Positions 1,862-55,001 of a stretch of DNA of 64,000 bases are shown piece after piece. The translations under genes and the position numbers were made by a program. Source of the stretch: Phycisphaera sp. (GTDB lineage Bacteria; Planctomycetota; Phycisphaerae; Phycisphaerales; UBA1924). The notes under the pieces are model-generated. The model saw only the letters and a program-made list of their open reading frames with translations, searched no databases and was not told where the DNA came from. The stretch lies in the NCBI GenBank assembly GCA_003712165.1, contig RHLH01000001.1, forward strand, positions 1,459,575-1,523,574, read 5' to 3'. Every line of letters starts with the position of its first letter. Position 1 is the stretch's first letter.

Positions 1862-1872
1862 CATGACGCAAC

Positions 1873-4044: not shown

Positions 4045-4241
4045 TGAGAGTCTCCGGAGGGCGGCAGGTCATTGCACAGTCGTGCTGCGGTCAAGTTATA
4101 GGCTGTTTTGAGAGCGTCTAAGCGTGCCTATCGCTGTATACACCGTGAGAATAACAGCTTCCAGTTCTTTGGAGGCATGCGCTCGGCCCGTATACTTTGT
4201 GCGAATCTGTTCGTACACAAGCGCTTGCAGGAGCACACCCA

Positions 4242-16155: not shown

Positions 16156-19100
16156 ATGATCCGATCGAGCACAGCCAGAAAAGCCGCCACCCCGGTCATG
16201 CTTGCCATGCTCGCGGGCACCGCTGTCGGGGGCCCCGAGGGCGAGCAGGTCGTCGCTGGCCAGGCGGATTTCGTTCGCGACGGCGTCCTGACAGAGATCA
16301 CCGCCGCCGACAACACGATCATCAACTACCAGTCGTTCAACATCGGTGCCAACGAAACAGTGCGTTTCATCCAGCCCGGTGAGCAGGCACGCGTTCTCAA
16401 CCGCGTGCTGGGGCAGGACCCATCGCAAATCAACGGGTCGCTTCTCTCGAACGGTCATGTCTACCTCGTCAACGAGGCGGGCGTGTTCTTCGGGAACCAG
16501 GCGGTTGTCAATGTCGGCTCGATCACCGCTGCCGCGGGGACCATGACGGACGCAGACTTCCTTGGTGGTATCGATCGCTTTACCGGCATGACCGGAGCGA
16601 TCGAGAACCGCGGCGTGATCAACGCGGGCGAGGTGCACTTCGCGGGCCGGCTCGTGACAAATCTCGGATCTGTCTTCGCGCCTGAGGGTCTCGTCACGAT
16701 GTCCGCAGGTGACGATGTCTTGATCGGTGAGTTTGGGGGCCATCTTTTCGTCAGCGCATCAGGTGCGACGGAAGGGGGTGTTGAACAGCAGGGCGAGATC
16801 AACGCAGCCGGCGGCAGAGTCATGGTCGGTGCGGGGGACATGTTTTCGATCGCGATCGGGCCCGGTTCAACGACAAAGGCGGGCACCATCGACGTCCGCG
16901 GGGGCGAGGGATCGATTGTCACGGCGTCGGGCTCGCTCGATGTTTCGGACACCGCGCCAGGACGCATGGGCGGATCTGTCACGATCACCGGCGACGGCGT
17001 CGCGGTACTCGGCGCCGACATTGACGCATCGGGCGATGCCGGGGGCGGTCGTGTCTATATCGGTGGTGGTGTTCAGGGACAGGATGTCACGATCGAGAAC
17101 GCGAGCCGGGTGAACGTTGACGCGGAATCGACCATCAACGCCGATGCGATCAATTCAGGCAACGGCGGCGAAATCGTCCTCTGGTCCGACGACGCGACGC
17201 TCTTCTCTGGGAATATCTCAGCGCGGGGCGGGGAGCAGTCTGGCGATGGCGGGTTCGTCGAGGTTTCAAGCACGGGCTGGCTCGGTTTCTTCGGACACGT
17301 ATCGACTGGTGCTCCTAACGGTGAAGATGGTCTGCTTCTGCTTGATCCGGTCAACATCAACATCATCTCCGGCGCTGCCGGGACGGGAGCGGACGACGCG
17401 CTCCTGGACGACAATCAACTCCCGGCGAGCGATGCGGCTGGCCTGGATGTCCAGATCTCCGACGGCACTATTGAGGCCCTCAATGACACCGATATCCTGA
17501 TCGCCGCAACCGGTAACATCGCGATTGCAAATCTCGTTGATGGCGAGTTGGCGTTACCCGTGACATCGGGCAACACGTTTACGTTCAACGCTGGCGACAC
17601 GTTTGCGATGGCTGGCCAGAACACGATTACAACCGCAGGCGGGAACCTCTCGGTCACGGGTGTCAACGGCATCCAGATTCCGGGCATCAACACCGCCGGC
17701 GGCGACCTCACACTCCAATCCAACGGCATGATCCGGATGCTGCGCAGCATCGATGATGCTGGATTACTCACGATCAACGCTTTGGGTGGAGATCGGAGGG
17801 TCGAGCTCGCAGGGGCGACGTTCGACTCACTCGATCTCGATGCTGATGAGCTGAGCCTCTCGGGTTCGCTGTTCTCTTCTTCGGCGCTCGACCTGACCGG
17901 ACTCATGCGAATCGAGTCGATCAATCCGCAGGCGAACGTGTCGATCGCTGCTGTCGACGGAGTTGACGCGTTTGATATCGATATCGACCCCTCAACAACG
18001 ATCACTGGCCCGGGTGGCATGCGGTTCGTCGCACGGACACTCTCGCTGTTCGATGTCTCGGGCTTGTCGCAACTCCAGGTGACGACGACAGAGGGGCTCT
18101 CACTCGGCGGCAACTTCCGGATGGACAACGCCGAGACAGGGCTTGGTGGGCTCGTCGATCTAAGCGACGCCGGAACAATTACTCTCGTGTCGGATGTGCT
18201 CATCGATACGGATGTTCCGGGCATCGACGAGATGGCCGGTGACATTATCCTCGACGGAGCAATCGTTCGAGCATCGACTCCCGGCGTGCAGACGCTGACT
18301 CTCGACGCGAATTCATTTGATAAGGACGCCAACGACGGCCGGATTGTGCTGGGTGATTTCAGCCCATCCAGCCAGGTAGGCAACATCGCGCTCTTCGGCG
18401 GCGAGCTCGTGCTCATGGGCGACGTGTTTGCTCCTGGCGGGCTCGATCTGTCGCGGATGCAGTCGCTCAATGTCGCAGGCGATGTGACTATCAACACACG
18501 GGGCGGCAATCTCACCCTTGGTGATCGCGGCCTCGACGGCGTCGGCAACCTCATCATCGATCTCGACACGGACATGGGAGATTCGGGGTTCCTGCTGACC
18601 GATGCGGAGATCGGAGGCGAGACGCCGCTCGGCTCGCTCACCATCTTTGCAAACCAGATACATGTTCCCGAGGTCACCACCAGCGGCGATCAGCTTTACC
18701 GCGGGCAAGAGATCTTCATCAGCGAAGACCTCGTCAGTCAGGGCGGGACGATCACATTCGGGAGCGAAACCCGTATTCTGGAAGACGTCGAGCTCGAGTC
18801 GATCGGCGGCACCATCCGGTTTGCCGAACGCGTCGCCGGCCAGGGCAACCTTGTGACAATGACCGAGACAGGCGCGACTGTGTTTGAGAAGAGTGTCTTT
18901 CTGCCGAGCCTTACCGCGATGGGTGATGTTCGGTTCGATGGAACTGCGCAGAACATCATCATCACGAACGACATCGTGCTCGGTGAAGAGATCGGTCGAG
19001 ACCGGATCGATCTTGCCGTTGGAACAAAGGTTATCCGCTCTGAGATGGGCGATGTGATCTTCAACGGGCCGGTCAATGGGCCCGCGAATCTAACCGTCGC

Positions 19101-20442
19101 AGCCGGACCCGGTGACACGAGCGACGATGTCCCGGTCGTCAGATTCGGTTCCAACGTGGGCGGCGCCGAGAGCCTCGCGTCACTCACACTGGGTGACGGC
19201 AACGCGTTCATCCCGCGGGTTGCGACCATCGTCGCGGCGAACTTCGATGAGGACGGCGAGCCGCTTGCGGATCAGTCGTTCACGTTCCGCACGACTGGCA
19301 ACCTTTCCATGGGGCAGAACGAGAAGCTCACTGTTCTCGGCTCACTCCTGATCGAGTCGATTTCTGGTGTTGTTACGCTCTCCGACGTCACATCGGTTGG
19401 GGATATGCGGTTTAACGCACCCCGCATCGACGTCCTCTCCAGAGCGGCGAGCACGGTCTTCGAGGTTGATCCCACGCAGGACCCGGTTGTACTGCTCGAC
19501 CAAGACGGCAGGACAGATACCGGCGTGGATATCGTCACGGGTGGCAGTGTTATCTTCGACTCCCCGGATATCCGCGTGATCGGTTCGGGGTTTGCGCAGC
19601 CCGTGATCGCTGAGCCCCTGGGTGAGATCAAGATCGACGGGTTCCAGACACGAGCATCGAACGAGTTGACGCTTGAGCAGTTGTACTTCAACCGCCGGAC
19701 CGGAACCGGAGGCGGTGCGATGCGCGACGAGACGACCGTGCTCGACGCGAGAGCCACCGGGTCGGTCACCGTGCCGCTGGCTCAGGGGTTGCCGCCCGAG
19801 CATGCGCAATTCACCGAGGCATCCGAAACTGCTGAAGGGATCTTGGAGCCAAACCCGAGTTCGGGCAAGCTTCCTGAAGGTGACCAGGGCGGCGTCATGC
19901 TGCGTTCAACAAACGCGCGTGAGAGGCAACTCGCGAGCGAGGGCGTGATCTGGCACATTGATCTCGCGGAGAGTGTTAGGCCTGACGCGGGGGACTTCCA
20001 GATCGCTTCAGGCAGACTGAAACAGGCCATGGTGCGTGAGTTCCGCGGCTCGTGGAACTCGCTTGCCGTCGCGCTCGGTGTCGAGAAGGGCGACCGTGAT
20101 GAAATGCTCTCGCGAGTTCGATCGCTGCTCGGTGTCGCGGTCGATCAGTACAAGCGGTCCTCCGGTGAGCGTTTCGTAGATCCGCAGCATTTCGCGCTCT
20201 TTGCGGACCTGCGCTCGGCAAACAAGGATGCCTGGATCGCATTGGGTTACATCGCCTCGATCATCGAATCGGGCGACAATCTCGGCATGACCCCCAGGGA
20301 AACTGTGAGGTTCCGCAACGGCGTGCTCAACGCGATCAAGCCAAACGGCATCGACCGGGTCGATCTCGCCAGACTCGTCGAGTACGCGGGGCAGTCAGAT
20401 GCTCAGCAAGCGAATATTGAGGCCCCGGAGGGGCAACGCTAG
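16156..20442 (+). CDS. TpsA exoprotein (filamentous haemagglutinin-type beta-helix) with a non-repetitive helical C-terminal region
   Basis: 1428 aa. N-terminal TPS secretion domain: TEITAADNTIINYQSFNIGANETVRFIQP...RVLNRVLG..PSQINGSLLSNGHVYLVNEAGVFFG. Long Gly/Asn/Asp/Thr-rich beta-helix. It lies 15 nt after tpsB. Confidence 0.85.
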   Translation: MIRSSTARKAATPVMLAMLAGTAVGGPEGEQVVAGQADFVRDGVLTEITAADNTIINYQSFNIGANETVRFIQPGEQARVLNRVLGQDPSQINGSLLSNGHVYLVNEAGVFFGNQAVVNVGSITAAAGTMTDADFLGGIDRFTGMTGAIENRGVINAGEVHFAGRLVTNLGSVFAPEGLVTMSAGDDVLIGEFGGHLFVSASGATEGGVEQQGEINAAGGRVMVGAGDMFSIAIGPGSTTKAGTIDVRGGEGSIVTASGSLDVSDTAPGRMGGSVTITGDGVAVLGADIDASGDAGGGRVYIGGGVQGQDVTIENASRVNVDAESTINADAINSGNGGEIVLWSDDATLFSGNISARGGEQSGDGGFVEVSSTGWLGFFGHVSTGAPNGEDGLLLLDPVNINIISGAAGTGADDALLDDNQLPASDAAGLDVQISDGTIEALNDTDILIAATGNIAIANLVDGELALPVTSGNTFTFNAGDTFAMAGQNTITTAGGNLSVTGVNGIQIPGINTAGGDLTLQSNGMIRMLRSIDDAGLLTINALGGDRRVELAGATFDSLDLDADELSLSGSLFSSSALDLTGLMRIESINPQANVSIAAVDGVDAFDIDIDPSTTITGPGGMRFVARTLSLFDVSGLSQLQVTTTEGLSLGGNFRMDNAETGLGGLVDLSDAGTITLVSDVLIDTDVPGIDEMAGDIILDGAIVRASTPGVQTLTLDANSFDKDANDGRIVLGDFSPSSQVGNIALFGGELVLMGDVFAPGGLDLSRMQSLNVAGDVTINTRGGNLTLGDRGLDGVGNLIIDLDTDMGDSGFLLTDAEIGGETPLGSLTIFANQIHVPEVTTSGDQLYRGQEIFISEDLVSQGGTITFGSETRILEDVELESIGGTIRFAERVAGQGNLVTMTETGATVFEKSVFLPSLTAMGDVRFDGTAQNIIITNDIVLGEEIGRDRIDLAVGTKVIRSEMGDVIFNGPVNGPANLTVAAGPGDTSDDVPVVRFGSNVGGAESLASLTLGDGNAFIPRVATIVAANFDEDGEPLADQSFTFRTTGNLSMGQNEKLTVLGSLLIESISGVVTLSDVTSVGDMRFNAPRIDVLSRAASTVFEVDPTQDPVVLLDQDGRTDTGVDIVTGGSVIFDSPDIRVIGSGFAQPVIAEPLGEIKIDGFQTRASNELTLEQLYFNRRTGTGGGAMRDETTVLDARATGSVTVPLAQGLPPEHAQFTEASETAEGILEPNPSSGKLPEGDQGGVMLRSTNARERQLASEGVIWHIDLAESVRPDAGDFQIASGRLKQAMVREFRGSWNSLAVALGVEKGDRDEMLSRVRSLLGVAVDQYKRSSGERFVDPQHFALFADLRSANKDAWIALGYIASIIESGDNLGMTPRETVRFRNGVLNAIKPNGIDRVDLARLVEYAGQSDAQQANIEAPEGQR

Positions 20443-41471: not shown

Positions 41472-42833
41472 ATGAGAATGAGAATTTGCTTTGCACTCGT
41501 AGGCTGTGCCGCGATGGCTGGATCGGTGTCCGCTCAGGGTGCTGATGTCATCGCTGGTGACATCACTGGCCCGTCCTTCTGGGGCGGCCTCAACGGTGTC
41601 TCGGCCTACTCCATCGGTACCGAGTCGTGCAACATCGGTGATGTCGATCTCCTCTGGGACGACACCACAAGCGATGGAACACCTGCAAACCTTCACCCGC
41701 TCATGTCTCAGAACATGTTCCGCATGAAGGACGGCCGCTTCGAGCAGATCGGACAGAGCTGGCTCAAGCACGCATTCTTCGCTATTCAGGGCAGCGGCCT
41801 CTGCGCCCCGACATGTGACGCGCACCCGACCGGCGACGCCCTCGGCCCAGGCTGCAACGACCCCTACAGCTCAGGTCTCAACGGCTCGCAGAGTGGTCTT
41901 GGTCCGAAGTTCGAGGTCAACGCTGCGACTGGTGCGTACCCGTGGCCCTTCACCGGCGACGGCCAGACCGGCAACGTCCTCTACAAGCGAATCCAGGTCG
42001 ATAACGACGATCTCAACCCCTCGATGAACGCAGGCGCCATGTACTTTGGCGAAGGCCACTACGTGACCCCTGACGACGCCGCGGCTGGCAACGACAACAA
42101 CAACGCGTCGTACCGCCGCATCAACATCGGCAGCTTCTCCAGCGGCGGCTACAACGCCAACTTCACGGGCTCAACGATGCGTGGTTCGCCCGCGATTCAG
42201 GCCTGGCAGGACTTCGATGGAAGCGTCGTACTCAACTCGCTCGACGTCCCCAACGACGGCCGTTTCTGGATTGGGTACAAAACCTCCGACAACGGTGATG
42301 GCACGTGGCACTACGAGTACGCGATCTACAACCTGAACTCCGATCGTTCGGGCGGCAGCTTCCGCGTCCCGATCGGCAACGGTGTGACCGTCACCAACAT
42401 CGGCTTCCACGACGTGGATTACCACTCGGGTGAGCCGTTTGACAACACCGACTGGACCGGTTCGGTCGTCGGCAACGAGGTCGTCTGGAACTCACCCGCC
42501 GACTTCAACACCGATCCCAACACCAACGCCCTCCGCTGGGGCACGCTCTACAACTTCCGCTTCGACGCGGACGCACCGCCCCAGAGCGTCGACGCAGTCC
42601 TCGGCATGTTCAAGCCAGGCGCTCAGACGGACTACAACGTTCCCGGCGCCGGCCCCGAAGGCGCTGACTGCCTCGCCGACGTGAACGGTGACGGCGCCGT
42701 CACCCCGACGGACTTCACCGCCTGGGTCAACGCATTCAACAACAACCTCCCCGAGTGCGATCAGAACGGCGACAACGCATGCACCCCGACGGACTTCACC
42801 GCCTGGGTTGCGAACTTCAACGCCGGCTGCTAA
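41472..42833 (+). CDS. Secreted protein of unknown function with a C-terminal Cys-bounded dockerin-like module
   Basis: 453 aa with signal peptide MRMRICFALVGCAAMAGSVSAQG. I do not recognise the body. The tail is CLADVNGDGAVTPTDFTAWVNAFNNNLPECDQNGDNACTPTDFTAWVANFNAGC. Confidence 0.7.
   Translation: MRMRICFALVGCAAMAGSVSAQGADVIAGDITGPSFWGGLNGVSAYSIGTESCNIGDVDLLWDDTTSDGTPANLHPLMSQNMFRMKDGRFEQIGQSWLKHAFFAIQGSGLCAPTCDAHPTGDALGPGCNDPYSSGLNGSQSGLGPKFEVNAATGAYPWPFTGDGQTGNVLYKRIQVDNDDLNPSMNAGAMYFGEGHYVTPDDAAAGNDNNNASYRRINIGSFSSGGYNANFTGSTMRGSPAIQAWQDFDGSVVLNSLDVPNDGRFWIGYKTSDNGDGTWHYEYAIYNLNSDRSGGSFRVPIGNGVTVTNIGFHDVDYHSGEPFDNTDWTGSVVGNEVVWNSPADFNTDPNTNALRWGTLYNFRFDADAPPQSVDAVLGMFKPGAQTDYNVPGAGPEGADCLADVNGDGAVTPTDFTAWVNAFNNNLPECDQNGDNACTPTDFTAWVANFNAGC
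42669..42833 (+). other. C-terminal double PTDFTAW / DxNxDG dockerin-like module, copy 2
   Basis: Same 4-Cys, two-repeat layout as 6861-7028, and it ends in Gly-Cys-stop. Confidence 0.7.
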
Positions 42834-44823: not shown

Positions 44824-45567
44824 ATGAAGAGCGTCGCGGTCCCGTACACGGCCAGCATGGGGGTAGGCGTGAATTCAGTCCCGCAGGAAACCTCGAGGCT
44901 AGGCTCGCTCATCCCGCCGGCCATCCTCGTCCTGCTTGTGCTGGGTGTCTGTATGGTCACCGCCTTCATGCTCGAAGGCGACGCAAGGCAGCAGTTCCTC
45001 GCCGAGTCAGGGCCTATCGAGACCGGGAGTGCTCTGAGCTACGTCGCCATCACTGTTCTGCTCTGCGGCTTCTCGTTCTGGCGAGTAGACCGTCGCTTCA
45101 CACTCCAGACCGCCGCGATCTCAGCCTTGCTCTTGGCGCGCGAGCTGGATTGTCACAACAGATTCACGACCGAGGGCGTGTTCCGCTCGAGTTTCTACTT
45201 CCGTAACAACGCATCGATCTCGGAGAAGATCATCGTCTCGATCATCATGATCGGGATCATCATCCTGCTCATCGACTACGCGCGAAGATACGCGGGCAGG
45301 TATATCAGGGGCGCATTGTCACTGACACCCTGGGTCCTTTGCGTCGGGGCTGGATTTGCGATGATCGTCCTGGGCAAAGCCATGGACTCATCTACGTGGG
45401 CGTTTGAGGTTGTGGGCGTAGAGCAACAACTCTCGATCAGCCTGATCAACATCCTCGAAGAGTCGCTCGAACTCGCCGGGGCCGTAGCGCTGCTTTGCGC
45501 TTCAGTTCTGTATATCCGTTCGGCTCTGCGGGAACGATCACCGAGAGCCAAGCCTCTCAACTCTTGA
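44824..45567 (+). CDS. Hypothetical polytopic membrane protein
   Basis: 247 aa with about 6 hydrophobic segments. No recognisable motif. Confidence 0.5.
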   Translation: MKSVAVPYTASMGVGVNSVPQETSRLGSLIPPAILVLLVLGVCMVTAFMLEGDARQQFLAESGPIETGSALSYVAITVLLCGFSFWRVDRRFTLQTAAISALLLARELDCHNRFTTEGVFRSSFYFRNNASISEKIIVSIIMIGIIILLIDYARRYAGRYIRGALSLTPWVLCVGAGFAMIVLGKAMDSSTWAFEVVGVEQQLSISLINILEESLELAGAVALLCASVLYIRSALRERSPRAKPLNS

Positions 45568-45787
45568 TTTCGGTCGAGGGTTCCTGCACCTTGCCACCCG
45601 CGATGAGTTCATCGCAGATCAGCTGCGCCTCAGTTTCCGAGTTGCACCGCTGATAGGTCGTCCACGAGTTCTGGCTCGATCTCCTCCATATCCACCAGTC
45701 GCCGTTCAGATCGTGCGCGACTCGGTAAGGGGCGTTCGGGACGAACCTCCGGGCAGGTGCCGAGCCTGATGAATTTGGCTGCAACAT
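45557..45787 (-). CDS. Small hypothetical protein (76 aa), last gene of the SecA-like operon
   Basis: ATG 45787 is preceded by AAGGAGG 7 nt upstream and lies 62 nt after the SecA-like stop. Trp-rich core DLNGDWWIWRRSSQNSWTTYQRCNSETEAQLICDEL. Confidence 0.5.
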   Translation of the reverse strand: MLQPNSSGSAPARRFVPNAPYRVAHDLNGDWWIWRRSSQNSWTTYQRCNSETEAQLICDELIAGGKVQEPSTEIKS

Positions 45788-45849
45788 GCCTTGCCTCCTT
45801 TCAGAAGAGGTGCATTCAGGATACCCCAAATTGACAACAAATGCGACTT

Positions 45850-47850
45850 TTAACTCTTCGAGGTATGCATGGCCATCTCTTGCCAGGCGTCGCTCCGTGC
45901 AGTTGTGACCCTATGAGATGCCGCCCTGCGGGAGGCCAGCCACTGGGCCTGGCGCCAGAGCAACGCGGTCAGGGGCTTGATTGAGAGCTTTTTGGCCAGC
46001 CATATCAGGGGGGGGAGGCCCGACGCACAGATGAGCTGATCGTCGAACGCGACATACATCTGCGCGGCACCGGGGTCGCCCTGTCTGCCCGCCCGACCGA
46101 ACAGCTGGCGATCCACGCGACGCTCCGAGTGTCTTTCGGTTCCGAGTACAAACAGGCCGCCGAGTTCCTTGGCCTCTGGGTCGAGTTTGATGTCAGTCCC
46201 TCGGCCTGCCATGTTCGTCGCGACCGTGACCGCGCCGACCTTGCCCGCGTGAAGCACGATCTCGGCTTCTTCCTTCTCGCGCTCGGCGTTTAGGACCCTG
46301 CACACGATCCCCTTCTCGATCAGCATCGCGCCGAGCTTCTCAGACGTCAGGACGCTCCGGGTCCCGATGAGCACGGGCTTGCCCTTCTTGTGAAGCTGCG
46401 CAGTCCTTTCGACCACGGCTTCCAGTTTCGCGTCTTCGTTTTCGAACACGACATCCTCGCGTTCGTCACGAATGACGGGTCTGTGTGTCGGCACGCGAAC
46501 GACCGCTTCGCCGTACGTGCGCCAGAGTTCGTCGGTTACTTCCTTGAGCGTGCCGCTCATCCCCGCAACGTATCTGTACTGCTGGAAGAATCTCGCGTAG
46601 CTGATGCGCGTTGATGTCCGCCTGGCTACCGTCGGATTGAGCCCTTCTTTGGCTTCGACCGCCTGATGAAGCCCGGCTTGCCACTGCCTTCCCTCAAGCA
46701 CGCGTCCCGTCGAGCGATCGACGATCTCGATTTTGTCATCACGGATGATGTAGTCATCACCCTTGATTTGTATCTCCTTCGCCAGCAGCGCGGTCCGCAC
46801 GATCTCCTCGCTTCGCCTGGGCCCGGTCCAGAACGCGGGGAACGATCTGGTCATTTCTCTCAGCTTTGCACGCCCCATGTCGGTGATCTCGACATGTCTG
46901 AGCTTGCGATCAACCTTGTAGTCCCCCCCCTCGACCATGTCTCTTGCGATCGCGCAGGCCGTCCTGTGGTGTGCCCCGCTCCGGTCTTCGCCTGAGCGTT
47001 CGCTGAGCTCCTCAGCCGCGATGATCGCGGGCGTGGCTGCCTCGTCGATCAGGATGCTGTCGACTTCGTCGATGATGACCGCATTGAACCCCCGATGCAC
47101 TACACCCCGGTGCCAGCTCGGCTCGCCCTCTCCCGAGAGCTCGTGCAGGATCGATCCCGAGAGCGACACAGCGGGGGGAATCTCAAGGCGATCGCGCAGA
47201 AAGTCGAAGACGATCTGCTTGTCAGCCGCGTACGTGATGTCCGCGTCGTACGCAGCCTTACGATCGCCCCTTGGGGTGCTGTCGACCACCACGCCCACGC
47301 TCATCCCGAGCCTCTTGTACACGGGAGATGTGATCTCGGCGTCTCGGCTGGCGAGATAGTCATTTACCGTGAGCACGTGGACACCCCGGCCTGACCAGCC
47401 GTGGAGCACGGTCGGCAGGATCGCGGTGACCGTCTTGCCTTCGCCGGTCGCCATCTCCGCGAGCGCACCGTCGGCCATAATGAGACCGCCGATCACCTGC
47501 TCAACGTAAAGCGAGAGCCCAAGCTCCCTGCGGATCGCTTCACGCGTCAGAGCAAACGCATCATCGACCGCCCGGGCTTTGTCACGCCCGAGAAGCACCG
47601 CGTCGCGGTACTCATCCGTCAGCTCGCGCAGCGCAGCATCGCTGTGGTTTCGAAGCGCGTCAGATGCCTCGACGATCCGCTCGGCTCGTTCAGTGCGGTT
47701 GTACTTGAACGTCTTGCGTGCGTACTTGCCGTGGACCCAGCTTCCGAACATGTCGAACCCGTCTGGGGGAGGGGAGCGCCTGACGGAACGCGAGAGCATG
47801 GGCCAAAGCCTTCGCGACGCGGGCGGCATGTGCTCGGCGAGCAGACTCAA
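45850..47850 (-). CDS. SecA-like ATPase: DEAD motor plus preprotein-crosslinking-like insert, lacking the canonical C-terminal scaffold/wing/CTL domains
   Basis: 666 aa. Walker A MATGEGKTVTAILP (47431-47454), VHVLTVNDYLASRD, DEVDSILIDEAATP, TGRVLEGRQWQAGLHQAVEAKEG, NMAGRGTDIKL, GRAGRQGDPG followed by only ~72 aa. The TTG start overlaps the upstream stop (TTGA). Confidence 0.85.
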   Translation of the reverse strand: MSLLAEHMPPASRRLWPMLSRSVRRSPPPDGFDMFGSWVHGKYARKTFKYNRTERAERIVEASDALRNHSDAALRELTDEYRDAVLLGRDKARAVDDAFALTREAIRRELGLSLYVEQVIGGLIMADGALAEMATGEGKTVTAILPTVLHGWSGRGVHVLTVNDYLASRDAEITSPVYKRLGMSVGVVVDSTPRGDRKAAYDADITYAADKQIVFDFLRDRLEIPPAVSLSGSILHELSGEGEPSWHRGVVHRGFNAVIIDEVDSILIDEAATPAIIAAEELSERSGEDRSGAHHRTACAIARDMVEGGDYKVDRKLRHVEITDMGRAKLREMTRSFPAFWTGPRRSEEIVRTALLAKEIQIKGDDYIIRDDKIEIVDRSTGRVLEGRQWQAGLHQAVEAKEGLNPTVARRTSTRISYARFFQQYRYVAGMSGTLKEVTDELWRTYGEAVVRVPTHRPVIRDEREDVVFENEDAKLEAVVERTAQLHKKGKPVLIGTRSVLTSEKLGAMLIEKGIVCRVLNAEREKEEAEIVLHAGKVGAVTVATNMAGRGTDIKLDPEAKELGGLFVLGTERHSERRVDRQLFGRAGRQGDPGAAQMYVAFDDQLICASGLPPLIWLAKKLSIKPLTALLWRQAQWLASRRAASHRVTTARSDAWQEMAMHTSKS

Positions 47851-50030
47851 TTGAGCCGTCCGTCGATGAACTGCTGAACCCGCCTCGAAACCCGCGAAAG
47901 GATCGTGCTGGGTTTGAGTGCGACCCTGACTTTGGCTCGCCTGCCGGGGAGCAATCCATCGGTTGTTTCGGGCGTGACATCCACGAGCGTGAACGTTTCG
48001 AGCGATCGGCCTCCCTGCTGCGGGTCTGCGACGATCTCACCGCCGGTGACCGTCGAGAACTGCATCGACTCGATGTCTTTCGTCCCTGCGGGCCAGACGC
48101 GGGTCACGTTTGCAGGGATCGTTCTCCATGCTTCGCCTCGCAGCCGCACCTCGGTTCGGGCGTTCTGTTCGCTGAGTACAGGAAGGACAGCGCCCGCTCT
48201 CGCGTCCGTGATCGCTGCGCGGACCACGTAGCTGTCTTCGGGGATTACCGCTGCGATGACCGAGCCTCGTTCCAGGAACCGCCCGATCATGTTCCCCATC
48301 TCGTGACCCGAGCCGCCGATTGCGACAAACGTGCCGTCGATCTCGGCGATCACTTCCAGATCCCGCGCTCGCTCCTCGAATTCTTCAGCCTCGGCGAGCG
48401 TGCGTTCGTACTGAGCCTCGGCGACACGCCGCTCGGCGATGCCTCTGATCGACGAATCGTCAAGCGTCGCACTTGCCCGGTCGATGCGGGCGCGTGCCGC
48501 CCTGAGATCAGCAAGGATCGACGGGTTCTTGAGTTCGATCAGCACATCGCCCTTGGAGACACGCGATCCCGGCTCAACCGCGATCCGTTCGATGTAGCCC
48601 GAAGAGAGCGGTCTGACGATCGACAGCCCCTCTGACTCGACGACCGCGGGCAATGTCCCCGAAGCCGGCATCGGAATGACGCACAGCAACAGCACGATCG
48701 GACCAACGATCGCAAGCGTGACCCCGATGCTCCTGCTCCGTCTGCCCATCAGCTGGGGCGAAGTCAGCAGGAACCAAGTTGCCTTTACAACGGGCCAGAC
48801 GAACCACACAAACCCAAAGAACACCGCGAGAATGAGCCCGAGGCTGAGATACTGCGTGGAGATGATCGCCAGGATTGAGAACGTGATGAAAAGCCTGTAG
48901 GGCACTGCGCACGCGTGGTATGCAAAGAGCAGCCTCGCTTCAGCCGTGTCACGGATGTAGGGCGGCCTGGCGCTGATCACCCCGAACCATTTCTTGTGAA
49001 TCCAGTACTGCCAGATCGACTTGGCGCGCTGAGCCAGGTTTGGCGCACCGGCGAGATCGCACAAGATGTAATAGCCGTCGTAACGAAGAAGCGGGTTGGC
49101 GTTGAAGATCACAGTCGACACGCCCGAGATGAGCATCGTGTTGAACGCCAGCGCCCTCGCGAGCCCGGGCTCGGCGAACGCCCAGATGAACGTGGCGATC
49201 GCGGCGAAGAATATCTCCACGATCATCCCACCCAGTCCAACGACAACCCGGCGCCAGGTCTCCGAGAATTTCCAGGAACTCGACGCGTCGCAGTAGGGCA
49301 GGGGCAGCAGCATCGCAATCAGCATGACACCGATCTCGGTGCACCTGCCGCCCATCGCCTTGCAGGCCATCGCGTGCCCGAACTCGTGGACCGCACGGAT
49401 GAACAGGAAGAGGATGCCGATCCAGACGAGGTTCGCTGGGTCAAGGATGCCGTTGAAATCGCTGCTCAGCCGATCTGTGTGCGTGAGGAAGACACCGATC
49501 GCCGAAAGAACGAGCAAGAGCCAGGCGGCGAAACCGTACCGTGACCACATGACACGGAGGTATGGCTCGAGCCCCCGAAGCACCGGCTCTGGGTTCAAGA
49601 GCGGGATGTTGAAGAACATCCAGTTGCCAGTCCGCTGCTTGAGCCGCTGCTGCTTGAGCCTCGCCTGGCGTTCTGGCACCATATCCGCCGCGATTGGCTG
49701 GTCCCCTACGAGTAGACCGAAGAGCTGCATCTGCGAGAGCAGCTCGATGCACTCTTTCTGCGTCGGCGCATCGTCACCGAGCTGTGCCAGGCATGCTTCC
49801 CAAGCGTTGTCGACTGTTCGTTTGCCGTCGAGCAGCCCGAGGAAAAACCGCGCAGATTCGCTGAGCCTGTAGAAATGACCGCCCGATGGGTCATCGATGA
49901 CATAGCTCACCGTCGGACCGTGACGCTGGCGAACGAATCTCGCGTGCACGCTGACGCGTGGGCGTTGATCCGCCACGCGGTACCACATGTCCGCGAACGT
50001 GCTGCCGATATCTTCGCGCAGGAACGCCAT
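47847..50030 (-). CDS. Fusion protein: PqqD/RRE-like N-domain, M50 (site-2 protease) membrane domain, HlyD-type membrane-fusion domain
   Basis: 727 aa. YVIDDPSGGHFYRLSESARFFLGLLDGKRTVDNAW...ELLSQMQLFGLL (PqqD-like pattern). HEFGH in a TM segment (49374-49388). NANPLLRYDGYY (49074-49097). C-terminal lipoyl-like SSGYIERIAVEPGSRVSKGDVLIELK, a coiled coil and a beta-barrel. Confidence 0.8.
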   Translation of the reverse strand: MAFLREDIGSTFADMWYRVADQRPRVSVHARFVRQRHGPTVSYVIDDPSGGHFYRLSESARFFLGLLDGKRTVDNAWEACLAQLGDDAPTQKECIELLSQMQLFGLLVGDQPIAADMVPERQARLKQQRLKQRTGNWMFFNIPLLNPEPVLRGLEPYLRVMWSRYGFAAWLLLVLSAIGVFLTHTDRLSSDFNGILDPANLVWIGILFLFIRAVHEFGHAMACKAMGGRCTEIGVMLIAMLLPLPYCDASSSWKFSETWRRVVVGLGGMIVEIFFAAIATFIWAFAEPGLARALAFNTMLISGVSTVIFNANPLLRYDGYYILCDLAGAPNLAQRAKSIWQYWIHKKWFGVISARPPYIRDTAEARLLFAYHACAVPYRLFITFSILAIISTQYLSLGLILAVFFGFVWFVWPVVKATWFLLTSPQLMGRRSRSIGVTLAIVGPIVLLLCVIPMPASGTLPAVVESEGLSIVRPLSSGYIERIAVEPGSRVSKGDVLIELKNPSILADLRAARARIDRASATLDDSSIRGIAERRVAEAQYERTLAEAEEFEERARDLEVIAEIDGTFVAIGGSGHEMGNMIGRFLERGSVIAAVIPEDSYVVRAAITDARAGAVLPVLSEQNARTEVRLRGEAWRTIPANVTRVWPAGTKDIESMQFSTVTGGEIVADPQQGGRSLETFTLVDVTPETTDGLLPGRRAKVRVALKPSTILSRVSRRVQQFIDGRLN

Positions 50031-50042
50031 CGGTATGCCTCG

Positions 50043-51950
50043 TTACAGCCAGGACCACATGCGGAACGCGTCCACCATCGGCCTCGTGAGTTCCCAGAGC
50101 GGCGTGCTCCAGCCATCGCTCAGCTTCGCGGTGCCGGTCATCCCGGGCCTCAGCCACTCGGGTGGGTTCTCGATGATCGCCTCGATGAGAAAGACGTTCG
50201 CGCCCTCTCGAGGTTGCGCGACGGGGTTCACACGATCAACAACGATCGGGATCTCCTGACCCGGTCTAGCTCGGCTAGCGATCCAGCCCTTCTGCCCGAC
50301 CTCGACGCGTCCCGCGTTGCGCTCGTCGACCTCGATCACCACTTTCACACCCGGGCCCACGATCTCGAAGAGCGCTTTGGCCGCATCGACAGGGGCTCCG
50401 ACGAGTTTCTCGAGATCGCCCCGGCTCACTGTGCCGTCGATGGGCGCACGAAGCTGTGCGAGAGTCAGTCGCTCATTGATCAGGTCGATCGACGCGTTCG
50501 CCTCTTCGATCTCGGCCTCACGTTGCCGTGCGAGTGAACGACTGCCCTCAGCGAGCGCGTTGTCCCGCTGCGTCGTGAGAGTCGCGACCCGCTCGTTGAG
50601 TTCAGTCAGGCTCAGCATGAGCTCGGTGGTATCGAGCGTCGCGACGACATCGCCCGCCTGAACGGAATCACCTGGCCTGACCTCGAAGCTCTTGAGGAAC
50701 CCCGCAAACGGCGGGACCACCGCCCGGCCGATCTCTGCCTTGAGTTCCATTGAGCCCTTTACCCTCGAGGGGATCGGGATAATCGCGAGCAGGATGAAGA
50801 TCACAAGAGCCGTGAGCGCCAGCAGCTTCTTGCCTGTATGCCTTGGGCCGACAATGCCTGCGCCGAGATCCACCATGTCATCGCGCAGGACCTCGGGCGT
50901 GCGCCTATCCGCGAGCCTTCGGGTGTACACTGCGGGCCCGACGAACTCTGCGATCAGACGAAGCAGCGGGAGGACCGCGTCCGGGAACGGGTCGGAGGCG
51001 TCGCGTTCGAGCACCATCACGCCAACCAGGTCATCTTCGATCCGTAGCGGCAGGCTCACGATCGAGCTGGGCCCGAACGACTCGCTCAGCCTCGCGTGCT
51101 CGTGCGTCACACGTCGGCTGCCGGGCTCATTCTCCATCATCTGGGACGGTGGGTACAGCACCTCCGCATCCTGGAGAGCCGCCTCTTCCATGACCGCTTC
51201 GAGTGCTTCGACTGTTGGCGCGTGCTTGTCCAGGTCGTCTGAGCCGCTCACGGACACAACGCGGAGGTAGTCGCCTTTGAGCATCCCGATGGAGACACGT
51301 GTGCAGCCGAACCGGCGGCGCATCTCATCGCAAAGCAGAGACCCCATCGCTGAGGCTGTGGCACCCTTCTGCGCCTGGTCGAGGAGTTCCAGCGTCTCGC
51401 GGAGCATGACCTTGTGCTCGGCTTCGGTCAGGAACGACTGCTTCCAAAGGAAGCCCTCGAATCTCGCTGCGCTCAGGGAGAGCCTGTCGAGCTTGATGCT
51501 CTGGGGTTCTCTGTCCGAGGTGGGCACGAGAACGATGCTTGCTCCTTCGCTCTTGCCGTCGGCAGTAAGCGGGGCAGCCAGTGCTGTGTGTGTCGCGCTG
51601 GCGGCGTAGAAATCGTGCGCACCGGCGAGTGTCATAGCTTCCGACATGCCAGCGGATGATGACTGCGACGCCTTCTGCCCGAGTGTGCTCAGCTTCTTCG
51701 TCGTTGACTCGTCGAACGCGATGTCTTCGTTCGCGTGGTACACGACGAAGACCCCTGCCGGTCTCGACTTTCCTTGGCGCAAGAAAACGGCGCCTGCATC
51801 GGCGCCGGTGATCTTGCACTGGAATTCGAGAAGCTTGCCGAGGAATTCGCGGAGCGCGTAGTGCCTGGCACCCTGCGGCGTCTCTACAGACTGTGCCGAG
51901 TCGGTCGTGATCTCACCAGCTTGGCTCTCGGTCTGTTGTTCGGTTGACAT
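50043..51950 (-). CDS. Tandem GAF-like domains, single TM, HlyD-type membrane-fusion domain
   Basis: 635 aa. The cytoplasmic N-terminal half has two GAF-like segments (...ADAGAVFL..., ...IVSLPLRIEDDLVGVMVLER...). TM LLALTALVIFILLAIIPIP. Lipoyl-like FAGFLKSFEVRPGDSVQAGDVVATLD, coiled coil, barrel. Confidence 0.72.
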   Translation of the reverse strand: MSTEQQTESQAGEITTDSAQSVETPQGARHYALREFLGKLLEFQCKITGADAGAVFLRQGKSRPAGVFVVYHANEDIAFDESTTKKLSTLGQKASQSSSAGMSEAMTLAGAHDFYAASATHTALAAPLTADGKSEGASIVLVPTSDREPQSIKLDRLSLSAARFEGFLWKQSFLTEAEHKVMLRETLELLDQAQKGATASAMGSLLCDEMRRRFGCTRVSIGMLKGDYLRVVSVSGSDDLDKHAPTVEALEAVMEEAALQDAEVLYPPSQMMENEPGSRRVTHEHARLSESFGPSSIVSLPLRIEDDLVGVMVLERDASDPFPDAVLPLLRLIAEFVGPAVYTRRLADRRTPEVLRDDMVDLGAGIVGPRHTGKKLLALTALVIFILLAIIPIPSRVKGSMELKAEIGRAVVPPFAGFLKSFEVRPGDSVQAGDVVATLDTTELMLSLTELNERVATLTTQRDNALAEGSRSLARQREAEIEEANASIDLINERLTLAQLRAPIDGTVSRGDLEKLVGAPVDAAKALFEIVGPGVKVVIEVDERNAGRVEVGQKGWIASRARPGQEIPIVVDRVNPVAQPREGANVFLIEAIIENPPEWLRPGMTGTAKLSDGWSTPLWELTRPMVDAFRMWSWL

Positions 51951-51976
51951 CCGCTGTGCCTGCTTCGGGATCCTGA

Positions 51977-52366
51977 TCAGTCAGCCAGCTTCGGGCCTTC
52001 TTCGGCACCGGGAGCGCGCTGGATGGCGATCTCGCCGTTGCGCTCCTCGTACTGGCGGATGACCTGCCCGAGGGTGATGGCGAGCCTCTTGGCTGCCGAC
52101 CAGTTCATGATGGTGCGGTTGCCCACCGAGAAGAGCAGGGCGGGCTGGCCGTCCGGGCCCTGGGTGGGGAGGTTCATGCCGAAATCGAGCACGACCTCGT
52201 CGTTGGTGGTGGAGGTGCGGATGGTGTTGGCGTAGGTCGAGGTCATCTTGCTCTCGTCGATACGAAGCTGGACCTGCTGCTGTTGCTGCTGCTCGTCGGC
52301 CATCTGGGTGTCGCCTTTCATCTGGTTTTCGGTTTGTGACGTCGTGGGGCCGGTCTCCGCCGGCAT
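51977..52366 (-). CDS. DUF3467-like small protein with an N-terminal poly-Gln tract
   Basis: TSTYANTIRTSTTNDEVVLDFGMNLP...NRTIMNWSAAKRLAITLGQVIRQYEERNGEI matches my recollection of the DUF3467 pattern. The start is uncertain (ATG at 52366, 52321 or 52303). It lies 26 nt upstream of the GAF-MFP gene. Confidence 0.55.
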   Translation of the reverse strand: MPAETGPTTSQTENQMKGDTQMADEQQQQQQVQLRIDESKMTSTYANTIRTSTTNDEVVLDFGMNLPTQGPDGQPALLFSVGNRTIMNWSAAKRLAITLGQVIRQYEERNGEIAIQRAPGAEEGPKLAD

Positions 52367-52509
52367 TTGGGCCCCGCTCGGAGCCGCTGGGCACTCTGTC
52401 CCTTACCGAAGGCTATGCCACCCGACGGCGAGGTCCAACCTGTCCCGTGATTCGGGTCTAGGTGTCCCAACGGGAAGCCAGGCGAGAAGCTGGGTTATCT
52501 ATAGGGCGA

Positions 52510-53325
52510 TCAGAAGCTCACACGGGCGTGCATGCCGCTGGGCAGCAGCTCGGGGTTGGGCACCTCGATCCGGATGAGCACCTCCCGGACGCTGGCCTCA
52601 CCCGCGGTGCTGATGAAGATGATCTTGCCATCTGCGGGAGCGTCCGTCTCAACATCAAGCCAGACAACACTCGCGGATTGGCCGACCTCAAGCGTGCGAG
52701 ATACGGGAACTGGCACGCTCACGTCGATGCGGACCGGGTTCACCTGCACGATTGTGACCACGGGCGTCTGCTCGTCCACCGTCTCGCCTTCGCGGCGGGA
52801 GATGTTGATGACGTCGCCGTCAATCGTGGAGTGCATGCTCATCTCGTCGAGACGGGCCTGTTCGCGCTCGACGGTGATCCTGCGTTGTTCTGCCTCGAGT
52901 TCTGCCGCTCTGACCTCGACCTTCGCACGATCGACAGAGAATCGTGCCTCGCGGAGATCCTGCTGGTTGGCGCCGCCCTCAGCGCTGGATTGCTCGACGA
53001 GTTCGAGTTCGCGCTCGGCGAAATCGAGCGAGATCCGAGCGAGCTGCAGCCGTGTATCGTCAGCCTGCTGGGCCTGAGCCAGTGCAAGGGATGCCCGCTG
53101 GACAGCATCATCGAGCTTCATGATGTGGTCGCCGACCTTCACCTGATCGCCGGGTTCAACGTTTACATCCGCGATCTTGCCCCGGACCGCAAACGCGAGC
53201 TCGCGCACTTGCGAGGGACGGGAGACGCCCGTGTAGGCACCGGGCTGGGGGATGGTGAGGCCGCCCAGGGTGAGGAATGCCAACGAAGAAGCTGCAGCAG
53301 CCAACAGGATCGCTCGGTTCCGCAT
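52510..53325 (-). CDS. Periplasmic membrane-fusion (HlyD / efflux adaptor) family protein
   Basis: Start MRNRAILLAAAASSLAFLTLGG (signal peptide) with a GGAGGA RBS. Lipoyl-like VRGKIADVNVEPGDQVKVGDHIMKLD, a short coiled coil and a beta-barrel. The longer track ORF runs through the tRNA and is rejected. Confidence 0.75.
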   Translation of the reverse strand: MRNRAILLAAAASSLAFLTLGGLTIPQPGAYTGVSRPSQVRELAFAVRGKIADVNVEPGDQVKVGDHIMKLDDAVQRASLALAQAQQADDTRLQLARISLDFAERELELVEQSSAEGGANQQDLREARFSVDRAKVEVRAAELEAEQRRITVEREQARLDEMSMHSTIDGDVINISRREGETVDEQTPVVTIVQVNPVRIDVSVPVPVSRTLEVGQSASVVWLDVETDAPADGKIIFISTAGEASVREVLIRIEVPNPELLPSGMHARVSF

Positions 53326-53392: not shown

Positions 53393-53476
53393 TGCCGGAG
53401 GGGGGACTTGAACCCCCACTCTGTTTCCAGAAGTGGATTTTGAATCCACCGCGTCTGCCAATTCCGCCACTCCGGC
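53393..53476 (-). tRNA. tRNA-Leu (CAA anticodon), type II with long variable arm
   Basis: Minus strand: GCCGGAG-TG-GCG..CGC, anticodon arm GTGGA-TTCAAAA-TCCAC, variable arm TCTGGAAACAGA, T arm GGGGG-TTCAAGT-CCCCC, acceptor CTCCGGC, discriminator A. No encoded CCA. Confidence 0.9.
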
Positions 53477-53639: not shown

Positions 53640-55001
53640 ATGTCCGAGTCCACCGAGCAGCGAATCAGCACGTGCACCGTTTCAGACGCGGGGCCCTGCC
53701 TCAAGCGGCTCAGCATCGAAGTCCCGGCTGACGTCGTCACCGAGCGGATCGACGAGTCTTTCGACACCCTGATCAGCGAGGCCGCCCTCCCGGGCTTCCG
53801 CAAGGGGCACGCCCCCAAGGGTCTCATCGAGAAGCGGTTCGGCGATTCAGTCCGAGGCGAAACCAAGAGCCAGCTCGTCGCGACCGCGTATTCGGAGTCG
53901 ATCGAGGAGCACGGCATCAAGGTCGTCGGTGATCCGATCTCCGAGTCGCTCCCCGATGCCAAGCTTGAGAAGGGCCAGCCCCTGAAATTCGAAGTGGACG
54001 TCGAGGTGATGCCCACGTTCGACTTGCCCGAACTCGACAAGCTGGCGATCAAGAAGCCCGTTCTCGATGTGGATGACTCGGTCGTCGCCGACGAGATCGA
54101 GAAGCTCACGCTCGCAGAGGGCGAGCTCGAAGAGCAGGAGACTGCTGCTGCCGGGGATTACATCTCTGGCCACGGCATCATGAAGGCCGGCGACGAGGTC
54201 ATCCACGACATCCCCGGCGCGGTTGTTCAGGTGCCCACCGACAAGGAAGGCATGATCCTTGGTGTGATGGTTGCCGACTTCGCCAAGCAGCTTGGCAAGC
54301 CCAAGGCCGGTGACGAGGTCTCGATCAAGACCAAGGGTCCGGAGCACCACGAGGTTGAGGCTGTCCGCGGGCAGGACCTGGATATCACGTTCAAGGTCGA
54401 GCGCGTTGATCGCATCATCCCCGCGGAGATCGATCCACTGCTTGAGCGTTTCGGCCTGGAATCCAAGGAGAAGCTTGAGGAGGCGATCAAGAACCGCCTC
54501 GAGCAGCGTGCCGCTGTTGAGCAGCAGATGGTCATGCGTCAGCAGGTCGCGAGCCATCTCCTCAAGAACGTTGACATGGAACTCCCCGAGCGTCTGACCG
54601 CCAAGCAGAGCGAGCGGATGCTCCAGCGGAAACGCGCCGAGCTGATGTACAGAGGCGTCGATCCGATGGAGATTGAAACGAACATCGCAAAGCTCCGCGA
54701 AGCGTCAGCGAGCGAAGCCTCCCGCGAGACCAAGCTCTTCTTCATGCTGAGCAAGGTCTCCGAAGATCGCGGCGTGCAGATCCAGCAGGCCGAGGTCGAC
54801 GGCGCGATCGCACAGATGGCCTTCCGCCAGGGCGTGCGTCCGGAAGGCTTGCGTCAGCAACTGATCCAGAACAAGCAGATCGGCACCATCGTCCAGCAGG
54901 TCATGGAGCACAAGGCTCTCGACTCGATCATCTCGACCGCGGAGATCGAAGAGGTCAGCAAAGACGAGTGGGAGAAGTTTGCCAAAGAGCAGAACAACTG
55001 A
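53640..55001 (+). CDS. tig: Trigger factor
   Basis: 453 aa. Ribosome-binding signature region LPGFRKGHAPKGLIEKRFG, a central FKBP-like region and a C-terminal helical arm domain. Confidence 0.92.
   Translation: MSESTEQRISTCTVSDAGPCLKRLSIEVPADVVTERIDESFDTLISEAALPGFRKGHAPKGLIEKRFGDSVRGETKSQLVATAYSESIEEHGIKVVGDPISESLPDAKLEKGQPLKFEVDVEVMPTFDLPELDKLAIKKPVLDVDDSVVADEIEKLTLAEGELEEQETAAAGDYISGHGIMKAGDEVIHDIPGAVVQVPTDKEGMILGVMVADFAKQLGKPKAGDEVSIKTKGPEHHEVEAVRGQDLDITFKVERVDRIIPAEIDPLLERFGLESKEKLEEAIKNRLEQRAAVEQQMVMRQQVASHLLKNVDMELPERLTAKQSERMLQRKRAELMYRGVDPMEIETNIAKLREASASEASRETKLFFMLSKVSEDRGVQIQQAEVDGAIAQMAFRQGVRPEGLRQQLIQNKQIGTIVQQVMEHKALDSIISTAEIEEVSKDEWEKFAKEQNN

Follow-up and report, generated by a model that had tools for sequence, protein, structure and literature searches.

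A published module and its member in Phycisphaera sp.

Secondary SecA_DEAD domain proteins, which lack the wing and scaffold domain, were described by Kamneva, Poudel & Ward in 2015 (PLoS One 10:e0129066, PMC4452313). These proteins are encoded in a conserved locus together with Peptidase_M50, HlyD/biotin-lipoyl and GAF-HlyD proteins and sometimes with an OEP protein, as exemplified by META1p2399-2402 of Methylobacterium extorquens AM1. In the published tree the secondary SecA_DEAD clade was sister to actinobacterial SecA2, and a canonical SecA was found in all carriers. It was proposed that the SecA_DEAD protein is an ATPase replacing the ATP-binding cassette (ABC) transporter and that the M50 protein maybe forms the pore of a type-I-like secretion system. 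Here we describe a corresponding minus-strand locus at positions 45557-53325 of a 64,000-nucleotide stretch of contig RHLH01000001.1 from Phycisphaera sp., referred to in full length as the window.

With a probability of about 0.55 we consider this locus to encode those parts of a TolC-dependent, type-I-like exporter that belong to the inner membrane and the periplasm, the ABC transporter being replaced by a SecA-derived motor and by an M50 protease with an RRE, the recognition element known from peptides that ribosomes make and that are modified after translation (RiPPs). The window shares with the published module its four core genes, those of the truncated SecA_DEAD protein, the M50-HlyD, the GAF-HlyD and the small HlyD protein. 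It adds a member from the Phycisphaerae, an upstream small membrane fusion protein (MFP) and a lineage-specific ORF of 76 aa. A preliminary description of this DNA had regarded the composition as undescribed; this has to be corrected, as a 2015 paper (PMC4452313) already reported the core module and put forward what is in essence the same idea of ATPase replacement and an M50 pore. The locus is thus a member of a published but uncharacterised module. The main text of the paper contains no occurrence of DUF3467, PqqD or Phycisphaera, and in the sections of it that were read no mention of giant neighbouring genes was found. A link to LEPR-XLL proteins, the RRE and DUF3467, which are treated below, are therefore points not found in the 2015 paper. 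Our literature search yielded no experimental follow-up of the module, the 2015 paper being the only relevant one.

All six minus-strand open reading frames (ORFs) of the preliminary description were recovered in the ORF listing with the same coordinates and spacing. Gaps of 26 nt and 12 nt, a TTGA start/stop overlap, three lipoyl-type motifs and an AAGGAGG ribosome-binding site were likewise seen in the sequence. Its domain calls, a second GAF domain excepted, were confirmed by Pfam and NCBIfam hidden Markov models (HMMs). The features in order of transcription are:

53393-53476, minus strand: tRNA-Leu(CAA), directly upstream of the small MFP gene (ARAGORN)
52510-53325, minus strand: small MFP/HlyD-type adaptor of 271 aa with an N-terminal signal/anchor helix (Pfam, NCBIfam, hydropathy)
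51977-52303, minus strand: soluble DUF3467 protein of 108 aa (PF11950; start from an alignment of 37 sequences)
50043-51950, minus strand: GAF-transmembrane-MFP fusion of 635 aa (Pfam, hydropathy)
47847-50030, minus strand: RRE(PqqD-like)-M50 metalloprotease-MFP fusion of 727 aa (Pfam, NCBIfam, AlphaFold2)
45850-47850, minus strand: truncated SecA-like ATPase of 666 aa (Pfam, family HMM)
45557-45787, minus strand: Trp-rich ORF of 76 aa (AAGGAGG ribosome-binding site, relatives)

Anatomy of the components

Window proteins were searched against Pfam and NCBIfam, structures were predicted with AlphaFold2 (AF2) and compared by Foldseek, and transmembrane (TM) segments were located by a hydropathy scan. 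The top database matches all bore the names of Phycisphaerales or Planctomycetota, in agreement with a Phycisphaerae source. The SecA-like ATPase matched SecA_DEAD (5.5e-83), SecA_PP_bind (8e-23) and P-loop_SecA (4.6e-54), and no SecA_SW (wing/scaffold) match was obtained in Pfam. It consists of the first nucleotide-binding domain (NBD1), the preprotein cross-linking domain (PPXD; 46654-46968), NBD2 and approximately 35 residues of the scaffold helix, and ends at residue 666 without wing domain, two-helix finger (IRA1) and C-terminal tail. Alignment to Bacillus subtilis SecA accordingly covers residues 20-554 only (NBD1-PPXD-NBD2), at approximately 41% identity. The GEGKT motif named in the preliminary description (Walker A, 47431-47454), DEVD (47059-47070), GRGTD and the arginine-finger motifs are intact. 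Since the N-terminal extension is conserved among orthologues, the start is TTG 47850 or ATG 47829 and not the internal MFGSW.

The short C-terminus is a family property. The chain stops at one and the same position in all 41 complete orthologues, the terminus being conserved ('AQ..AER....R.......L...LaFsG'), and the C-terminus of the window protein aligns with those of 22 orthologues. An HMM built from 37 module-linked orthologues from outside the planctomycetes scored the window protein with 702 bits end-to-end (positions 6-641 of 648), versus 538-565 bits in two to three pieces for the canonical SecA models TIGR00963 and PRK09200 (TIGR00963: 538, cut-off 800). Judged by these HMM scores, the window protein is predicted to be orthologous to the module-linked SecA-like proteins of other phyla and not to canonical SecA. 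The SecA2 models TIGR03714, TIGR04221, TIGR04397 and NF012136 gave E values of 1e-121 to 1e-154 but all missed their cut-offs, with scores of 473 (930), 406 (725), 514 (1085) and 383 (1100), respectively (cut-offs in brackets). Among the large ORFs scanned in the 64-kb window, no second SecA, TolC or ABC exporter was found.

Current database names do not reflect this family. NCBI, through its Prokaryotic Genome Annotation Pipeline (PGAP), lists SecA-like orthologues as 'prepilin peptidase', 'DEAD/DEAH box helicase', 'translocase' or 'hypothetical protein' (loci L005, L007 and L008; proteins P0015, P0079, P0087 and P0117), and the M50-adaptor is named 'PqqD family peptide modification chaperone'. 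This is a systematic misannotation, and the PGAP names of the motor need correcting.

In the M50-MFP fusion, an RRE (approximately 49701-50003) is followed by a polytopic M50 domain (48666-49553) and a periplasmic MFP domain (47850-48665). PqqD was matched with 30.8 bits (gathering cut-off 23.4), and Peptidase_M50 and HlyD_3 were also found in Pfam. Both active-site motifs, HEFGH (49374-49388) and NANPLLRYDGY (49071-49103), are intact; HExxH and NxxPxxxxDG (NPLLxxDG) are invariant across phyla, as are several residues of the RRE, which is also conserved in the Phycisphaerae. The AF2 model (pLDDT, the model's own confidence score, 84.9) comprises an N-terminal beta3-alpha3 domain, a bundle of TM helices and a C-terminal adaptor with a two-helix hairpin. 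On profile match and model, the N-terminus is a predicted PqqD-like RRE of the leader-binding type. The C-terminal domain matched MexA, MacA and AcrA in Foldseek at E values of approximately 1e-13, the MFP domain dominating the whole-chain search. Two NCBIfam families of RiPP peptidases were hit below their cut-offs, daptide_HExxH (NF041824) over residues 43-408 with E 4e-43 (147.9 bits, cut-off 300) and YydH/LiaK (NF058609) with E 1e-8 (34.8 bits, cut-off 225). The M50-adaptor family is large, with 3,918 representatives of 50%-identity clusters at E <=1e-30.

The GAF-MFP fusion carries a GAF domain at residues 200-340 (50931-51353; GAF_3, 6e-12), a TM helix at residues 376-394 (50769-50825) and a periplasmic MFP domain (50046-50768; HlyD_3, 1.3e-13; HlyD_D23, 2.4e-13). 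The preliminary description had assigned two GAF domains to it. Only a single one is detectable with Pfam; residues 30-190, the candidate region for the other, match nothing and show no similarity to a GAF domain. For the complete set, hydropathy predicts the RRE, the GAF region, the SecA-like protein and the DUF3467 protein to be cytoplasmic and all three adaptor domains to be periplasmic, a topology which fits an exporter model.

The DUF3467 protein belongs to PF11950 (E 2.9e-17) and has no TM segment. The family assignment of the preliminary description stood, its start at 52366 did not: an alignment of 37 homologues places the start at MADEQQ (52303), giving 108 aa. Within the Phycisphaerae (homologues P0241-P0360) the protein has a Gln-rich N-terminus, a variable linker and a conserved extreme C-terminal GP(R/K)LA(D/E), and its identity of 70-80% exceeds that of the motor (approximately 50%) and of the protease (approximately 44%). 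Its AF2 model is poor (pLDDT 60) and shows three strands plus a helix. The model had no Foldseek match in the PDB below E 0.1, and the profile had no match among PDB sequences. A SecB-like chaperone was considered for this protein and is unsupported; hhalign against Escherichia coli SecB gave a probability of 0.1.

Conservation and candidate cargo

One genome per GTDB species was scanned with a cross-phylum alignment of the M50-adaptor, and at least 560 relatives were among the matches listed. Counts out of 80 refer to the best 80 of these at least 560 species-level loci, which represent approximately ten phyla and include Planctomycetota, Verrucomicrobiota, Lentisphaeria, Nitrospirota, Alpha-, Beta- and Gammaproteobacteria, Desulfobacterota, Myxococcota, Rokubacteria and Acidobacteriota. 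A flank of 10 kb was fetched around each locus, which cuts most upstream giant ORFs. Five alphaproteobacterial plasmids, among them those of Methylosinus sp. C49 (L005) and Mesorhizobium ciceri R30 (L008), were added from a tblastn search of PLSDB. Gene tables were examined for the Phycisphaerae loci (including L001, L003 and L094-L098) and the five plasmids.

The preliminary description would have been refuted if these genes did not co-occur in other genomes; they do co-occur across phyla. GAF-MFP, M50-MFP and SecA-like genes follow each other in this order in the 80 species-level loci and the five plasmids. The SecA-like gene was present in 72 of the 80 loci and lacking in only 4 that have room downstream; the GAF-MFP gene lay directly upstream of the M50-MFP gene in 73, and the small MFP gene was found in 51. 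In Marinobacter suaedae (L085) the SecA-like gene lies apart from the module. On the plasmids all five components are orthologous to those of the window, at 25-44% identity. In the Phycisphaerae the module recurs among unrelated flanking genes, synteny being restricted to close relatives. Because the same genes occur together in differing flanks in more than 90 loci, the clustering is not due to chance. A DUF3467 gene is located upstream of the GAF-MFP gene in 28-29 of the 80 loci and in all five plasmids. Hence, DUF3467 is a recurrent fifth component of the module. In Rhodobacterales and Mesorhizobium (L026, L044, L048, L066 and L088), the M50-adaptor and SecA-like genes lie approximately 0.9 kb apart, leaving a gap with possible room for an additional gene; in other lineages they abut or overlap.

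Of the parts expected for a type I system, the adaptors are represented by three MFP domains and the ABC energiser is missing. No ABC gene lies in the operon of the window or beside the module in the gene tables examined, and the 80 GTDB loci were not searched with an ABC model; the sole ABC ATPase seen is convergent (L003) and not conserved. The absence of a pump partner stated in the preliminary description was borne out insofar as no ABC, resistance-nodulation-division (RND) or major facilitator superfamily (MFS) gene was noticed beside the module in the loci examined, for which no models of these pumps were run. Its statement that no TolC-like channel is encoded applies to the ORFs scanned in the window but not elsewhere. 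An iterated TolC profile detected TolC/OEP genes on the same strand within the module in 11 of the 80 loci, which belong to Nitrospirota, Verrucomicrobiota, Lentisphaeria, Desulfobacterota and Acidobacteriota, and in the Methylosinus plasmid L005; Pfam OEP confirmed four of these matches. These in-operon genes support a tripartite, TolC-dependent architecture. An unlinked TolC gene is common for type I systems.

The module borders directly on a same-strand ORF of 1,200 aa or more in 30 of the 80 loci, and in four of the five plasmids a gene of 8,848 to 12,738 aa is located immediately upstream of DUF3467. At the N-terminus of all four plasmid-encoded giants, (L/F/M)EPR(V/L)LL(S/N)AD comes after a basic stretch, and a hydrophobic Sec signal is absent. 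Each matches the NCBIfam LEPR-XLL model NF012209 (cut-off 17 bits) with 28-34 bits, and no conserved C-terminal motif was found among the four when compared. The leader is borne by every visible N-terminus beside the module, namely nine ORFs in eight loci of Nitrospirota, Verrucomicrobiota, Alpha- and Gammaproteobacteria. With our own motif HMM, these nine leaders scored 31-37 bits and everything else, including a reversed-sequence control, at most 7.4 bits. The giant proteins carry Big_9, cadherin-like, He_PIG and RTX calcium-binding repeats and are, by these domains, predicted to be extracellular adhesin-like proteins. The LEPR-XLL giants are probably the cargo of the module. A small peptide, which the preliminary description had allowed as substrate, is probably wrong, as neighbourhoods elsewhere point to the giant LEPR-XLL proteins. 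The function of LEPR-XLL is not discussed in any paper that we found, and two unrelated papers use the term once each; a preprint on giant proteins of Omnitrophota is unrelated.

In the window, neither LEPR-XLL nor a relaxed 'LE.R.LL' leader was found by regular expression or motif HMM. When ORFs of 23 planctomycete loci were translated in six frames (approximately 600,000 residues), a plausible variant leader was seen in one locus only (L040, Phycisphaerales). There, a large protein with PATR and RHS repeats is encoded divergently from the module (645-6616, minus strand) and begins 'IETLEERRLFAA'; two overlapping ORFs make up its coding region, perhaps because of a frameshift. Its 'LEERRLFAA' may be a form that the LEPR-XLL leader takes in planctomycetes and would make this locus a partial exception among the Phycisphaerae. 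Since the RRE is conserved in the Phycisphaerae, a leader-bearing cargo is expected to be encoded elsewhere in the genome.

The small MFP at the head of the locus matched HlyD_D23 (3.5e-16) and HlyD_3 (1.3e-12) in Pfam and RND_mfp in NCBIfam (109 bits, cut-off 94.9). Met at 53325 opens its signal/anchor sequence MRNRAILLAAAASSLAFL, and the only hydrophobic segment spans residues 5-23. The longest ORF extends to 53640; this extension is an artefact because it overlaps the tRNA-Leu(CAA) gene at 53393-53476. The tRNA gene sits between the first module gene and a divergent trigger-factor gene (53640-55001, plus strand), and a sigma-70-like promoter site is located upstream of it (53514-53486). It marks the upstream boundary of the module and may be co-transcribed with it. 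At the other end, the 76-aa ORF matched no Pfam or NCBIfam family. Homologues with 64-78% identity were found only in two syntenic close relatives (L094, 12069-12311; L095, 12061-12297), the ORFs measuring 76-80 aa and sharing the motif GDWWIWRRS..N.WTT.QRC.SE.EAQ..CDELI, and no such ORF was found after the SecA-like gene in L001, L003 and L096-L098. Kept only in near relatives, it is ruled out as a conserved precursor and is, by this distribution, a lineage-specific accessory gene outside the conserved module.

Two further groups of exported proteins are encoded in the window. Two secreted proteins with Sec-type signal peptides (4197-7028 and 41472-42833, both plus strand), one of them alpha-amylase-like, share a near-identical C-terminal tail of approximately 50 aa (DVN.DG.V.PTDFTAW.NAFNNN.PECDQN.D..CTPTDFTAW.ANFNAGC). 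The tail matches Pfam Dockerin_1, has a syntenic homologue in L094 and looks like a lineage-specific sorting or anchoring domain. A ShlB/Omp85-type TpsB transporter (14212-16140, plus strand) and an exoprotein of 1,428 aa that carries a TPS domain (16156-20442, plus strand) constitute a two-partner secretion pair.

Proposed mechanism and alternative explanations

Recognition by the RRE, cleavage by the M50 domain, a SecA-like drive and MFPs spanning the periplasm, as suggested in the preliminary description, is the most economical reading of this anatomy, and that interpretation is partly supported overall. In detail, the RRE would bind the N-terminal leader of the cargo, which in other phyla would be the LEPR-XLL leader of the neighbouring giant proteins, and DUF3467 might act as a cytoplasmic chaperone or targeting factor. 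The SecA-like ATPase would clamp the unfolded chain and feed it by ATP hydrolysis through the M50 TM domain and the adaptor anchors. The M50 protein would provide or line the passage through the inner membrane and remove the leader, and the three adaptors would form a periplasmic duct to a TolC-family channel, which in the window would be unlinked. The GAF region may gate or regulate the system.

A broader claim can be made only tentatively, and we hold it to be somewhat short of even odds. The module would then be a distinct and widespread secretion system, in which LEPR-XLL is the signal read by the RRE and cut by the M50 protease. Proteins of up to approximately 12,000 residues would be exported from N- to C-terminus through a hetero-oligomeric MFP duct and TolC, with a motor devoid of the SecY-coupling tail and with DUF3467 as dedicated chaperone.

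Several points weigh against the exporter and its proposed cargo. An adjacent giant gene, a LEPR-XLL leader and a TolC gene are all missing from the window and from each of the 13 Phycisphaerae loci in the GTDB sample, L040 being the one partial exception. The leader is readable in 8 loci and 4 plasmids only, most N-termini of giant proteins lying beyond the flank. DUF3467 is missing from about 50 of the 80 loci, and a role as chaperone or targeting factor is a guess. The motor lacks the two-helix finger, which canonical SecA inserts into SecY, and to our knowledge there is no structural precedent for an M50 domain as a polypeptide conduit. Furthermore, in the expression data from M. extorquens, the only such data, the GAF gene was expressed and the remaining genes were silent or low (PMC4452313).

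Export of a small peptide, bound by the RRE and freed of its leader by the M50 protease, would place the locus among RiPP-type systems. RiPP leader peptidases are likewise built from PqqD/RRE plus M50, as reflected in the daptide_HExxH and YydH/LiaK matches, and the M50 protease EpeP of a RiPP pathway is thought to cleave and export its own peptide (reviewed in PMC10885120), which may give some precedent for combined cleavage and export. The lack of a giant neighbour in the Phycisphaerae and the small ORF following the SecA-like gene in this lineage would also suit a peptide. We nevertheless regard this reading as unlikely. The family scores are far below the cut-offs (147.9 versus 300 at best), the small ORF is lineage-specific, and neither a tailoring enzyme nor a conserved short precursor appeared in the gene tables examined, the 80 GTDB loci not having been screened for either. 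A short peptide would hardly warrant a SecA-type polypeptide motor with three adaptors, and the conserved neighbour, where present, is a giant LEPR-XLL protein. It is more improbable that the motor is a SecA2-like paralogue serving SecYEG and that the M50 and MFP genes are merely co-regulated with it. The identity of approximately 41% to canonical SecA, the SecA2 model matches and the position as sister to actinobacterial SecA2 in the 2015 tree speak for such an accessory Sec pathway. However, all SecA and SecA2 cut-offs were missed, and the wing, the two-helix finger and the tail for coupling to SecY and SecB are gone in every member. The TTGA overlap, indicating translational coupling, and the adjacency to the M50-MFP gene in approximately 72 of the 80 loci also argue against it, as do the absence of SecY2 and Asp genes from the gene tables examined and the candidate cargo without Sec signal peptides.

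Regulated intramembrane proteolysis is the classical role of M50 proteases, and the presence of GAF as well as the clear expression of the GAF gene only in M. extorquens would be in line with a site-2-protease-like signalling device, controlled by GAF and remodelled by the ATPase. We would hardly expect this, since three MexA/MacA-like adaptors with hairpins and the in-operon TolC genes point to a trans-envelope duct, no sigma/anti-sigma partner is conserved, and PPXD and RRE handle polypeptides. The least credible explanation is efflux of small molecules, lipids or metals via MFP and TolC with an unusual energiser. The best NCBIfam matches of the adaptors are RND/CzcB-type MFPs, and PGAP uses the name 'efflux RND transporter periplasmic adaptor'; against this stand the polypeptide-binding PPXD and RRE, the linkage to giant exoproteins, and the absence of an RND, ABC or MFS permease among the genes seen beside the module.

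If the exporter reading is correct, diderm bacteria possess a separate solution for one-step protein export, in which a Sec-type motor has been rewired to a protease-adaptor assembly instead of SecYEG. The RRE, known from peptide natural-product pathways, would serve as a receptor for a secretion signal. A large class of giant surface proteins, which have an orphan LEPR-XLL motif and no Sec signal, would obtain an export route, and DUF3467 a role. With the proposed link of module to cargo, tests of the system become possible in cultivable Alpha- and Gammaproteobacteria.

Comparison with known systems

The RRE-M50 peptidases of RiPP pathways (daptide, YydH/LiaK/EpeP) resemble the M50-adaptor in combining a PqqD-like domain with a polytopic protease carrying HExxH and NxxPxxxxDG. 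In contrast to it, they have no MFP domain or SecA partner, act on small peptides and are encoded near tailoring enzymes. The accessory SecA2 proteins of Gram-positives and mycobacteria are likewise second SecA paralogues for a subset of cargo. SecA2 proteins keep the scaffold, the two-helix finger and a reduced wing and work with SecY or SecY2, whereas the window protein stops approximately 35 residues into the scaffold helix and scores below every SecA2 cut-off.

Classical type I systems for giant adhesins (LapBCE-LapA, SiiCDF-SiiE) work with an ABC transporter and with a C-terminal signal that is not cleaved off. Common to them and the module are giant proteins with Ig, cadherin or RTX repeats, whose genes lie next to those for MFP and TolC; for both, a one-step trans-envelope route is presumed. 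The module differs in having no ABC gene, and the conserved feature of its candidate cargo is the N-terminal LEPR-XLL leader. In peptidase-containing ABC transporter (PCAT) type I systems (CvaAB-TolC, PCAT1), one chain unites a C39 cysteine peptidase with an ABC half-transporter, and small bacteriocins with double-glycine leaders are exported. As proposed for the module, the leader is read and cut by the protease of the exporter itself, and transport is driven by ATP through an MFP-TolC duct. The module would instead pair M50 plus RRE with a SecA-derived motor on a chain of its own, use three different adaptors and probably carry a giant cargo. By analogy, its closest functional counterpart would be a PCAT system in which each inner-membrane part is replaced by an unrelated one.

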